Positions 7,240-24,845 of a DNA stretch of 32,407 bases are shown in pieces (the first letter of the stretch is position 1; every line of letters begins with the position of its first letter). The notes beneath the pieces are model-generated. The model worked only from the letters and a program-made list of their open reading frames with translations, did not search any database and was not told the DNA's origin. A program made the translations under genes and the position numbers. Origin of the DNA: Eledone cirrhosa (Eukaryota). The stretch covers positions 1-32,407 of the forward strand of contig CAXHJY010000813.1 in the NCBI GenBank assembly GCA_964016885.1. The letters are read 5' to 3'.

Positions 7240-7352
7240 AACGAAGGAAATGTGGTAAGGAACCAGATGGACCATAACGCACCAAAGTACTCAATACTTA
7301 GGGTAGTAGAGTGGGTAATAGGAGCGAGTAGGGGTCGGGGTCCTACTCGTTC
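7240..7352. mobile_element. Family B (TA)n-flanked element ending in a hairpin
   Basis: AACGAAGGAAATGTGGTAAGGAACC...GGGTAATAGG is near-identical to 19281-19376 and reverse-complementary to 24761-24845. Confidence 0.8.
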
Positions 7353-8127
7353 ATATATATATATATATATATATATATATATATATAATAATAATAATAA
7401 TACTATTTATAATTATGTATATAGTATAAACAACTATAAACAGGAAGGTCAGTAATTTCTTAATTGCCTTATTACCAGTAAGAGAAATAGCTCAATGTAT
7501 GAACATCAGTTGTTTTACAGAGCAGTTATTATATATATATATATTTATATGTATATATGTACGTATATACATATATATATATATATCTGTGTGTGTGTAT
7601 GTATATATATATATATAAATATATATATATGTATATATATGTGTATATATATATATATATTATATATATATATATACATATATATACATATATATTTATT
7701 TATATATATATACATACACACATATATATATATATATAAATACATATATATATATATATATATATATACATATATATATATATATATATATATATATATA
7801 CATATATTGATAAAAATGTAAATACCTATATATGAGTGTGAGTATGCCTGTGTGAGTATGCCTGTGTGAGTGTGAGTGTATTCAAACATAGATATATACA
7901 CATATTTCTCTTCCAATATCTATATATGATATTGTTGCAAAACTTATCGATACCATCTCTGTATGAAATGAGCAACTCAGTTCTATATCACTTGTTTCTA
8001 TCAATATCGATCTATTTGAATAGATCAATTATCAAATTATTATGCACCGATTAATTGACTGTCTGATCTGTTGCACGATAGTTCCAGCAACATCGATCCG
8101 TACACACATGAACTCACATAAATTCAT

Positions 8128-9480
8128 AAATAAATAAATAAATAAATAAATATATATATATATACATATATATATAAATATATATATATATATATAAATA
8201 TATATATATATATATAAATATATATATATATATATAAATATATATATATATATATAAATATATATATATATATATAAATATATATATATATATATAAATA
8301 TATATATATATATATAAATATATATATATATATATAAATATATATATATATATATAAATATATATATATATATATATATATATAAATAATATATATATAT
8401 ATATATAATATATATATATATAAATAAATATATATATATATATATATATATATATATAATTAAATATATATATATATATATATAAATAAATATATATATA
8501 TATATATATATATATATATAAATAAATATATATATATATATATATATAAATAAATATATATATATATATATATAATTAAATATATATATATATATATATA
8601 TAAATAAATATATATATATATATATATATAAATAAATATATATATATATATATATAATATATATAAATAAATATATATATAATATATATATAAATAAATA
8701 TATATATATATATATATAAATAAATAAAATATATAATATATATATATAAATAAATATATATATATATATATATAAATAAATAAATATATATATATATATA
8801 TATAAATAAATATATATATATATAAATAAATATATATATATATATATAAATAAATATATATATATATATAAATAAATATATATATATATATAAATAAATA
8901 TATATATATATATATAAATAAATATATATATATATATATAAATAATATATATATATATATATATATATATATATATAAATAATATATATAAATATATATA
9001 TATATATAAATATATATATATATATAAATATATATATATATAAATATATATATATATATAAATATATATATATAAATATATATATATATATATAAATATA
9101 TATATATATATATAAATAAATATATATATATATATATAAATAAATATATATATATATATATATAAATATATATATATATACATATATATATATATACATA
9201 TATATATATATATACATATAATATATATACATTTATATATATAATATATATATATATATATATACATATATATATATATATACATATATATATATACATA
9301 TATATATATATATATATATATATATATATATATATATATGTGTGTGGGTGTGTATAATATATATATATATATATATATATATATGTGTATAATATATATG
9401 TGTATAATATATATATATATATATATATATATATGTGTATAATATATAATTATATATATATATATATATTATATATATAT
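8128..9480. repeat. Long (TA)n array with periodic AAAT interruptions
   Basis: About 1.3 kb almost exclusively A/T. Confidence 0.95.
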
Positions 9481-9490
9481 GTGTGTGTGT

Positions 9491-9763
9491 GGAGGCACGT
9501 GGCCTAGTGGTAAGAGTGTTAGACTTACGATCATAATGTCGTGGGCTCGATTCCTGGGTTGCGTGTTGTGTTCTTGAGCAAAACACTTCATTTCACGTTG
9601 CTCCAGTATACTCAGCTAAAAATAAGTACCAGTAATAGCTGAGGTTTAACCCTGCGATGGACTGGCGTCCTGTCCAGGGGTGTATTGTACTCTCAGTCGC
9701 TTCACGCCATGATACCGAGATAAGCATCGGCCAAATGAGCCTTCTGGCTTAAGACAGACTTTA
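9491..9763 (+). mobile_element. Near full-length tRNA-derived CORE-type SINE (family S1)
   Basis: A-box TGGCCTAGTGG, B-box-like GGGCTCGATTCC, core TGTGTTCTTGAGCAAAACACTT, and 3' segment CCTGCGATGGACTGGCGTCCTGTCCAGGGG. Confidence 0.85.
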
Positions 9764-10214
9764 GACATATATATATATACGCATAGATAAATATTTATAT
9801 ATGTTTATGTACATGTATACTTACACACATATATATATATATATATATATATATATATATATAATATTTAATACAAGACTAGAACTGTTTCCTTCGAAGG
9901 AAATCATCAGGAAATCTTTCCTATGTTGTTCCTGTGTACCTTAATTACTATGTTACCTGTAAACCTGGGATACACACATACACACGTATATATATATGTA
10001 TATATAAGTTTATCCCGGGTTCAATCATGGGGTAACCACAGTAAGTAAGGTACTCAAGACATTGCAGAGTATAAATGAAAGAGTTCTAGGCATGGAGAAG
10101 CCATTTATTTATATATATATATATATATATATATATATATATATATATATATATATATATATATATATATTAAGAGAGTAAAACAAAGAATCCTTTAATA
10201 CATCAAAAGTTTTT

Positions 10215-10260
10215 ATTAGCCGACAATGTTTCGTCCTATTAAGGACTCATCAGGGCAATC
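10215..10260 (-). ncRNA. Minimal type I hammerhead ribozyme
   Basis: Minus strand: GATTGCC-CTGATGA-GTCCT-TAAT-AGGAC-GAAA-C-ATT-G-TC-GGCTAAT. Intact core, perfect 5 bp stem II, GUC cleavage triplet, stem I GCC/GGC. Confidence 0.75.
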
Positions 10261-22403: not shown

Positions 22404-22678
22404 GAAATTAACATGCAAGTGACTGAGCATACCACAAAAGGGCAGAGCTCTTGACGTAGTTCTCACGGAGATTCAGTGTGACACAGTATTTCGGTTGATT
22501 GGAATTAATATACAAGTGACCGCGCATTCCGCAGATATATACATCTTTAACGTAGTTCTCAGGAAGATCCAGAAATGACACAGTATTCGAGTTGAAATTA
22601 ATGTGCAAACGGTCGAACATTTCACAGACATCTGTACTTTTAACGCAGTTCTCAGGGAGATTCAGCGTGACACATTGG
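22404..22678. repeat. Three tandem ~93-97 bp units of an interspersed-repeat segment
   Basis: GAAATTAA.GTGCAAGTGAC...TAACGTAGTTCTCAGGGAGATTCAGCGTGACACA occurs three times. A single related copy lies at about 735-780. Confidence 0.8.
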
Positions 22679-22969
22679 GTAACATTGCGGGTAATATATG
22701 GAGAATAGAAATGGCTGTGTAGTTGCTATTTAAGGTAACTTAAAATGCAGTGGGAATACGAAGAAAGCAAGAACGCGGTGGGGAGTTTTTTTCATCAGTT
22801 ATCTACTGGGGGTCACGGATATTTCTACGCTTATATCTCTCTCTCTCTCTCTCTCTCTCTCTCTCTCTCTCTCTCTCTCTCTCTCTCTATATATATATAT
22901 AAATATATATATGTGTGTGTGTGTGTGTGTGTGTGTTAGAACACTCTCCAGCGCTCTCTCCAGCGCTAT

Positions 22970-23420
22970 TGGAAACATGTAACCCTGTAAAACCTGTCAC
23001 ATGGTCGGATCAGCGACGACTGACTCGGCAAACCTAAAACCTGGTTGGGAGAGGGGGGGGCGGATTTTGGACACAGAGAGGGATGGAATACAAATAAAGT
23101 CAAAGGACAGAGGAGATTCACCTGACATCGAAACTTGAAAAAAAAGCCCAATAAAGAAATAAGCAAAAAACGGTAGACATTGCTATGAAGCCATAATTGG
23201 CACTGCTTCTTGGAGAAGAATCACTCTGATTTCAAAACCAAACGAGATAAGAATCATTCATCACTATGGTGAAAACGTTTCATGTGGCCAAAGTTTCCAA
23301 GTTTGTGATAAAGGGAGAAGAACTGTGACTCGATTGGCAGATTCTGCTCCAAGGTCGGACGGAATAGAAATCGGTACCCACAGAGTATGTAAATCATGGA
23401 CTAACAAGATCATAAAATAT
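22970..23420 (+). mobile_element. Diverged relative of the 14265-14822 repeat (probable RTE-type 5' region)
   Basis: Collinear motifs CATGGTCGG, TTTGGACA, GTCAAAGGACAGAGGAG and TTCTTGGAGAAGAATCACTCTGATTTCAAAACC. Confidence 0.55.
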
Positions 23421-23719
23421 AAACATATACTATCATATATATATGTATATATATATATATATATATATATATATATATATATATATATATATATATACAT
23501 AACTATATATATATTTATATAAGTATATATATTTATAATTATATATATACATATATATATATATACATATATATATATATATACATATATATATATATAT
23601 AATATATATAAATAAGTATAGGCATATAGATATATTTATATATATAATTATGTACATATGTATATATATATATATATATATATATATATATATATATATA
23701 TATATATATATATATATAA

Positions 23720-23837
23720 TTTATTAAAATAACAGATTAAAGTTTAAGCAAAGAATCGATGCTTTCACCCTTAACGGGATCTTCTGAAACTCTAGCCTTC
23801 TTTGGATTTTAGTCTTCAAATTCATTATTATTACTAT
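23720..23837. mobile_element. Family A internally deleted copy in (TA)n
   Basis: Same structure and junction region as 6121-6238. Confidence 0.8.
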
Positions 23838-24652
23838 ATATATATATATATATATATATATATATATATATGCATATATATATATATATATATATATATA
23901 TATATATATATATATATATATATATGCATATATATATATATATATATATATATATATATATATATATATATATGCATATATATATATATATATATATATG
24001 CATATTATTTCAAAATGTTACCAAATGAAAAATATTCGCATAAATCAAAATATATACTTTATTATATATATTTCAAAGGTACTGTGCTGTTTTTTTCAGT
24101 ATGTATATATGTACATATATATGTACATATATATATATATACATATATATATGTTCATATATATGTACATATATATGTACATATATATATATAAAGATGT
24201 GTGTGATTATGTAGAAAGTCCCAGTCAGTAAAATTTTGTAAGAATCTATCAAATACTCGGTAAATAGCAAAATGATAAACATTTAATTCAAATTCTTCAC
24301 TATATATATACATATTATATATATATATATATATATATATATACATATATCCATATATACATATATTCATACATACAGATGTTGTATATATATATATATA
24401 TACATATTATATATATATATATATATATATATATATATATATATATATATATATGTATATATATGTATATGCATGCATATATATATATATGTATATATAT
24501 ATATATGTGTGTATATATACATACATATATATGTATATATATACATACATACATATGTATATATATATAGATGTAGATATATATATATATATATATATAT
24601 ATAGATATATATATATATATAGATATATATATATATATATATATATATATAT

Positions 24653-24845
24653 ATAGGAAAATGTATGACCCCGACGGCAGAACTCAAGCCGTTTCGACAG
24701 CTATTTCTGGACTGAAATAGCCGTCGAAACGGTTGAGCTCTGCCGTCGGGGTCGTATATTTTCCTATTTCCCACTCTATTACCCTAAATATTGAGTACTC
24801 TTGTGCGTTATGGTCCATATGGTTCCTTACCACAACTCCTTCGTT
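24653..24845. mobile_element. Family B copy, opposite orientation, with a ~55 bp-arm hairpin
   Basis: 24653-24707 pairs with 24714-24767. 24761-24845 is the reverse complement of the 7240 copy. Confidence 0.85.

Follow-up and report, generated by a model that had tools for sequence, protein, structure and literature searches.

Mirror-image stubs of a Penelope-like element in Eledone cirrhosa and their probable origin by dual priming on one RNA

The contig CAXHJY010000813.1 of the Eledone cirrhosa assembly GCA_964016885.1 (C840; 32,407 nucleotides, hereafter the window) is an unplaced contig rich in TA microsatellite from a genome of 3.0 Gb, and it carries copies of a short repeat at positions 7240, 18736, 19281 and 24845 (copies 1 to 4, copy 2 belonging to an older subfamily). 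An initial annotation of the window grouped the four as one family, family B, with a fixed terminus at one end and a variable, hairpin-forming end at the other. The grouping is borne out, as all four copies are 3′ tips of one Penelope-like element (PLE). The family has a 3542-bp parent, a (TA)n target, two fixed outer ends, a strong preference for pairing one arm of each kind head to head, and turning points between the arms that peak at particular parent positions. Such stubs probably arise by dual-strand priming on one RNA, with both copies running off its 5′ end. In what follows, unit positions refer to the numbering of the 3542-bp parent, the P arm is the proximal, tail-less arm, and the D arm is the distal arm that bears the tail.

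The parent element and its clade

The terminus AACGAAGGA follows (TA)n at 7240, 19281 and 24845 (the last on the minus strand), as annotated, and the tails of these three copies are 88-98% identical to one another. The copy at 18736 does lack the shared terminus, the last 28 nt of its tail being missing. The element's sense is that of the window's minus strand in three of the four copies. All four hairpins are real when compared with shuffled sequences (fold z scores of -5.7, -3.6, -15.7 and -4.5), and the earlier observation of four copies with hairpins is confirmed. No piece of the parent's open reading frame (ORF) lies within the window. A longer copy of the repeat led to a broken frame encoding a reverse transcriptase (RT) and a GIY-YIG domain, and a protein search gave 150 scored matches, many of them in open frames of 780-805 codons. 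Locus L158 holds at least two full tandem units of 3542 bp and part of a third, 99.8% identical, with open frames of 784-786 codons and an ORF of 717 amino acids in each unit. The units end in the family B terminus, which continues into the next unit, where an ATG lies ~90 nt past the terminus. Because the terminus closes each unit, the fixed end described earlier is the 3′ end of the element. A full-length parent with a complete hammerhead, as the initial annotation had envisaged, is found in this 3542-bp unit, the hammerhead being a predicted one. Tandem or partial-tandem organisation, giving pseudo-long terminal repeats (pLTRs), was seen at L158, L165 and other loci.

The parent ORF contains RT motifs (YRDDG) followed by IYQC...YIG, the arrangement of a single-ORF RT with a C-terminal GIY-YIG domain. 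It has 2015 homologs, the best of which carries PF01541; Pfam and PDB searches with the parent ORF returned no match. Further motifs are RWR at position 37 (RWK in most homologs), DKT at 117, CNCPDRSIC at 572, CNLC at 670 and CKH at 698, while CCHH is absent from the protein and one non-conserved C lies within GIY-YIG. By published clade motifs, this combination matches the Hydra clade of endonuclease-bearing (EN+) PLEs. As described in PMC8557442, that clade, including Hydra-1_Obim, shares with the parent a single RT and GIY-YIG ORF, DKT, CxCX5C and CxxC/CxH motifs, the lack of CCHH, a hammerhead and a (TA)n target. The same source gives RWK where the parent has RWR and a size generally below 3 kb, as against 3.54 kb (3542 bp) here, and the long stem II and U3-A8 core of the parent's hammerhead set it apart from the clade as described there. 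Comparison by eye with the Hydra-1_Obim material in PMC8557442 places the parent in another family, both protein and hammerhead being different. The element is a new family within a known PLE clade, and its inverted-plus-tail structure is already known. Canonical PLE insertions (PMC8557442, PMC3846280) comprise an inverted 5′-truncated copy with an optional tail at one end. Head-to-head arms, a one-sided tail and partial tandems are shared with them, whereas the tail here is 78 nt rather than 30-40 nt and stubs of ~200 bp predominate.

The family is abundant. Sixty evenly spaced 10-kb stretches of the genome yielded 12 matches representing ~11 insertions. Nine of these belong closely to the family, and from the nine a genome total of roughly 20,000-85,000 insertions is estimated. 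Most insertions are stubs of ~200 bp, and one exact 25-mer of the family has 26,181 matches in the genome. Stubs of this kind could be mistaken for miniature inverted-repeat transposable elements (MITEs) or microRNA hairpins. Identification as a MITE, or as another DNA transposon bounded by terminal inverted repeats, was rejected on account of the asymmetric ends, the variable apex and the RT-encoding parent. A retrozyme of the non-LTR (long terminal repeat) type was likewise rejected, since the stubs hold only the 3′ half of the hammerhead and the tandem units seen are coding. Also rejected as a parent was the ORF at L035, adjoining L029, which belongs to a different, Neptune-like PLE. The minus strand of L035 (3964-7438) carries a near-complete copy of that element, with RT, zinc finger, GIY-YIG and a canonical hammerhead core.

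Fixed ends, arm pairing and turning points

The end taken to be variable is not free, because the outer end of the second arm is fixed as well, 78 nt inside the terminus. Among 339 arms, 105 have their outer end at unit 3464 (P) and 148 at unit 3542 (D), the remainder being mostly diverged alignments that stop early, and both P and D meet the (TA)n target at a TA. Head-to-head pairs (n=116) comprise 109 D+P, 5 D+D, 0 P+P and 2 unresolved cases, and in sets that were not tail-selected 52 of 53 pairs are D+P and one is D+D. The one-P-one-D rule holds from arms of 8 bp up to arms of more than 2 kb. Folding of the parent predicts a small bulged hairpin behind each fixed end, at a distance of 6 nt for P and 4 nt for D, and the two hairpins are similar. 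The hairpin was said to be present always. That is true of most copies: among the other loci matching a tail query, read by hand, an inverted arm is found in 23 of 29 and none in 6 (~20%), so hairpin-less copies are a minority. Nor is the hairpin a fixed part of the consensus. The parent has no palindrome and arm length varies over the range given above, and the hairpin arises at insertion. Divergence between arms has a median of 1 per 32 nt within a locus, as against 4 between loci.

The lowest-energy fold of the parent's last 200 nt is a type I three-way junction with the core UUGAGAA plus GAAA, the predicted hammerhead, which lies in the pLTR and whose cut would fall after GUC at unit 3444. 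The likeness of the GAAACGG motif to a hammerhead 3′ half, noted in the initial annotation, holds, as the motif corresponds to the hammerhead GAAA and the first part of stem III. Across 14 close sequences 93.7% of stem cells are paired. The core is U3-A8 in 55 of 86 complete arms, C3-A8 in 29 and A3 in 2, and in the U3-A8 cores position 7 is free (G, A, C or U). A young subfamily (L037-L065) has the mismatched C3-A8 core, yet is widely spread; its hammerhead is predicted to be impaired. In PMC4209133, PLE hammerheads are type I motifs in pLTRs, for which a U3-A8 core variant is published, and motif pairs lie on opposite strands 100-700 bp apart. The long stems II and III seen here differ from the minimal form described there.

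The arms turn most often at one base some 40 nt ahead of the predicted cut. Arm 5′ ends (n=88) fall at unit 3400-3411 in 58 cases and at 3330-3399 in none. Matches to the 25-mer begin at A3404, and 10,152 of the 26,181 are preceded by a base other than T; true ends were found in 27 of the first 30 inspected. In contigs derived from run X2, summed depth drops ~8-fold across 3404, and X3-X5 behave similarly, although contig depth is a coarse measure and X2-X4 may come from the assembled sample and so do not count as independent support. Read-derived contigs also show inversion joints at 3404, and the step and the joints together make an assembly artefact unlikely. The site reads TTAGTC (TCAGTC in one subfamily), which resembles the Initiator consensus, and the A at unit 3404 is likely to be the RNA start. 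At 490 loci both arms are complete around a 1-nt centre, which is G:C in 426 and A:T in 64, although T is the template base in almost every one of the 86 listed complete arms. This excess of G:C fits a copied cap.

Dual priming might hold and the wall at 3404 nonetheless be a place where RT stalls, at stem II of the hammerhead and in its inner helix, and not the RNA start. The base does fall in the 3′ strand of that predicted helix, ends are scattered over 3400-3411, and 3404 is read as an RNA start from DNA sequence. A stall is nevertheless quite unlikely: the end is sharp to a single base and sits at an Initiator-like site, the non-templated G:C occurs at the start-like position (+1) and not at the cut site, and stems I and III are crossed without a drop in depth.

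A smaller class of arms ends at the predicted ribozyme cut, where 951 matches begin as against 349 at a control site, and inspection of 30 showed 19 true ends. Only 2 of 88 arm ends lie at this cut, and the view that it accounts for most apexes was rejected. When a cut-site locus has a partner arm, the partner stops at the cut as well in 10 of 14 cases, and the 1-nt centre of cut-site palindromes is A:T in 4 of 4 (p=0.0003). Partners that share so rare an end point to one RNA molecule having templated both arms. An origin from two cDNAs made on two separate RNAs held by an RT dimer has in its favour that the Poseidon PAc protein is a predicted dimer (PMC11167929) and that 2 of the 14 partners extend past the cut. 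The common end of the 10 partners that stop at the cut would have p ~7e-8 if 10% of RNAs were cut, and we regard separate RNAs as very improbable. At L280/L281 (C1:98560527-98560885), both arms begin at the ribozyme cut, ~320 nt apart, and the spacer consists of the element's own ORF sequence in two orientations.

Dual priming and its alternatives

In the mechanism that we favour, dual priming on one RNA, an endonuclease would nick both strands within (TA)n, and an RT dimer would start one copy at P and the other at D, on opposite target strands, each start lying just upstream of a similar small RNA hairpin. The same RNA would template both copies, the second displacing the first. The transcript is proposed to have two sets of P and D sites, one close to the 5′ end and one at the 3′ end. 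With a transcript start ~60 nt upstream of P, use of the 5′-proximal set would give run-off cDNAs of 60 nt and 140 nt and hence stubs of ~200 bp, and priming at the 3′ copy would give the same structure at kilobase scale, as in the long insertions. Run-off would take place mostly at unit 3404, where a capped start is predicted, and more rarely at 3445, the predicted hammerhead cut, after which the two cDNA 3′ ends would be joined by template jump or end-joining, with an overlap of 0-4 nt or short self-copied fillers.

The initial annotation inferred self-primed fold-back synthesis, and published accounts of inverted PLE ends (PMC8557442, PMC3846280) invoke endonuclease resolution or self-priming. 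In the fold-back scheme, proposed for PLEs in PMC3846280, a strand copies itself, and one of the two arms is subsequently trimmed at P by the endonuclease. No copy can contain sequence that is absent from its template, and the tail is always on the D arm, so junctions at which the P arm extends further 5′ argue against fold-back. Among 44 junctions not selected on their 5′ end (from 84 short hairpins parsed, with arms past unit 3330 excluded), the P arm reaches further 5′ by at least 3 nt in 15, the D arm does so in 15, and the two agree within 2 nt in 14; a hand-read set of 21 junctions split 5/5/11. Filler-free junctions imply loops of 2 nt or less in 13 of 25 cases. Fold-back also has to accommodate the 490 loci with complete arms around a single nucleotide and 4 more at the cut site, complete arms that flank fillers on both sides in several loci, and the lack of any doubly trimmed P+P pair among the 116. 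It draws support from subfamily variants common to the arms of one locus, from implied loops of 4 or 6 nt at many junctions and from self-copied fillers, and the 5 D+D pairs might be products that escaped trimming; if a free hairpin could be trimmed on either of its arms, polarity would likewise be absent. The short self-copied fillers at some junctions show that abortive snap-back does occur. As the main route, fold-back is unlikely, and the findings argue against the published self-priming idea. Two loci, L014 and L251, have poly(A)/poly(T) fillers at the apex, with both flanking arms reaching the +1 region.

The annotation's second proposal was a progressive collapse of long palindromes, considered here as shrinkage that starts at the centre once the copy has inserted. 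Long palindromes do occur in the family, and central deletion of palindromes is a known process. Arm length shows no trend with age, however: among 84 short hairpins, from the least to the most diverged tails, the median paired arm is 57, 57 and 55 nt (rho -0.13, p 0.25). Long inverted arms, of 0.6-2.7 kb, are still present and 97-99.8% identical, and apexes sit at RNA landmarks. Collapse can be regarded as highly improbable.

Several observations weigh against dual priming with run-off as set out above. D+D pairs occur (5 of 116), and the automated junction caller misassigned some arms, for example at L176, L184 and L192. Where +1 ends abut (TA)n, a hand count of 77 gave C as the extra base at 49 and G at 28, an excess that a cap alone does not predict, and a minor subfamily (3 of 86 arms) has a templated C at -1. 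Cut-site partners extending beyond the cut (2 of 14) are impossible from one cut RNA. With regard to the hammerhead, no covariation or compensatory changes were found in the stems of the 14 close sequences, Rfam gave no hammerhead match on the parent region, the folding energy is unremarkable (z -0.29), and 29 of the 86 arms have the mismatched C3-A8 core, in a sample that the query used had enriched. Transcription start, cap and ribozyme cleavage are themselves predictions made from DNA.

L1 elements provide a related case, twin priming, in which both target strands prime on one RNA and an inversion results. There the arms come from non-overlapping parts of the RNA, whereas here they overlap and have two fixed starts, giving a palindrome. 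A further likeness is to Poseidon PAc, for which two internal RT start sites that define the tail, and cutting and extension of both strands, are reported in vitro at AT-rich targets (PMC11167929). By analogy, this two-site, two-strand priming by another PLE agrees with the proposed mechanism. The main text of that study does not link inverted insertions to the dual start sites, and it has no reads at the hammerhead cut, whereas here a genomic arm class ends exactly there. A literature search, mostly outside subscription journals, found no paper that links PLE inversions to dual priming or RNA-start run-off, and none describing a genomic footprint of PLE ribozyme cleavage.

The origin of head-to-head, one-tailed PLE ends and the role of the hammerhead are called open in PMC8557442, PMC3846280 and PMC11167929. 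Dual priming would, if true, explain these long-puzzling mirror-image ends. In a young family whose ORFs are intact and whose junctions run to tens of thousands, such questions become a matter of counting, and exact predictions (a start site, two priming sites and a cut site) can be offered to an in vitro system of a type already in use. A wider reading, to which we attach even confidence, is that the stubs are a fossil record of PLE replication, in which each RNA was reverse-transcribed twice, starting at two sites marked by hairpins, and the apex marks a copied cap or a ribozyme-cut 5′ end. The cut-site class would then be evidence of PLE hammerhead cleavage in vivo, possibly with the hammerhead working as a split ribozyme on the 5′ end of its own transcript, and the ratio of stubs to full-length copies would depend on cleavage.

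The window copies and neighbouring repeats

The arms of the four copies are listed in the table. The P arm reaches further 5′ than the D arm in the copies at 7240 and 24653. In copy 1 it begins 3 nt ahead of the predicted ribozyme cut, and in copy 4 that cut falls after 24747. A small internal deletion is apparent in the D arm of the older-subfamily copy. The arms of copy 3 overlap by 2 nt, with an implied loop of 2 nt. The small bulged hairpin of copy 4 carries changes. Upstream of copy 3, the aborted start gives way to a duplicate of flank 19157-19175, which lies upstream, and then to a fresh start at 19281, a pattern that suggests an abortive initiation in which synthesis jumped to the target DNA.

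Table. Family B features in the window
Feature	Position	Strand	Remarks
Copy 1, D arm	7240..7332	-	unit ~3450-3542
Copy 1, P arm	7334..7356	+	unit 3442-3464; 5′ reach beyond D arm
Older-subfamily copy, D arm	18736..18818	-	tail short, ending at unit 3514
Older-subfamily copy, P arm	18819..18870	+	bears hammerhead 3′ half
Aborted 10-nt start of family B terminus	19231..19258	.	just upstream of copy 3
Copy 3, D arm	19281..19366	-	unit 3457-3542
Copy 3, P arm	19365..19375	+	unit ~3453-3464
Copy 4, P arm	24654..24713	-	reaches +1 A (unit 3404) exactly
Copy 4, D arm	24714..24845	+	unit 3410-3542
Hammerhead 3′ half of copy 4	24726..24752	+	GAAA, stem III, GUC, stem I 3′ strand
78-nt PLE tail of copy 4, between the two fixed ends	24767..24845	+	
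Small bulged hairpin of copy 4, ~6 nt behind P end	24773..24796	+	fold prediction

Other repeats share the window. A second family (3641-3933, 5352-5539, 15525-15798, 17009-17114, 21996-22095 and 28684-29122) has an AT-rich end that is fixed, and several of its copies are inverted; they often lie in (TA)n or (TTA)n, and this is probably the other family of the initial annotation. Members of a third (1427-1808, 6124-6235, 20483-20722 and 23721-23834) have inverted arms and one end fixed within (TA)n, and are possibly the stubs of another PLE. Short termini at 6256-6292 and 13433-13492 match the 3′ end of the Neptune-like PLE in L035. Of 543 Rfam matches to the whole window, the 150 best were all repeat-driven. 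Minisatellite arrays, unrelated to the stubs, occupy 2574-2925, 30430-31266 and 27551-28269 (44-bp, 46/69-bp and GTG-rich units).

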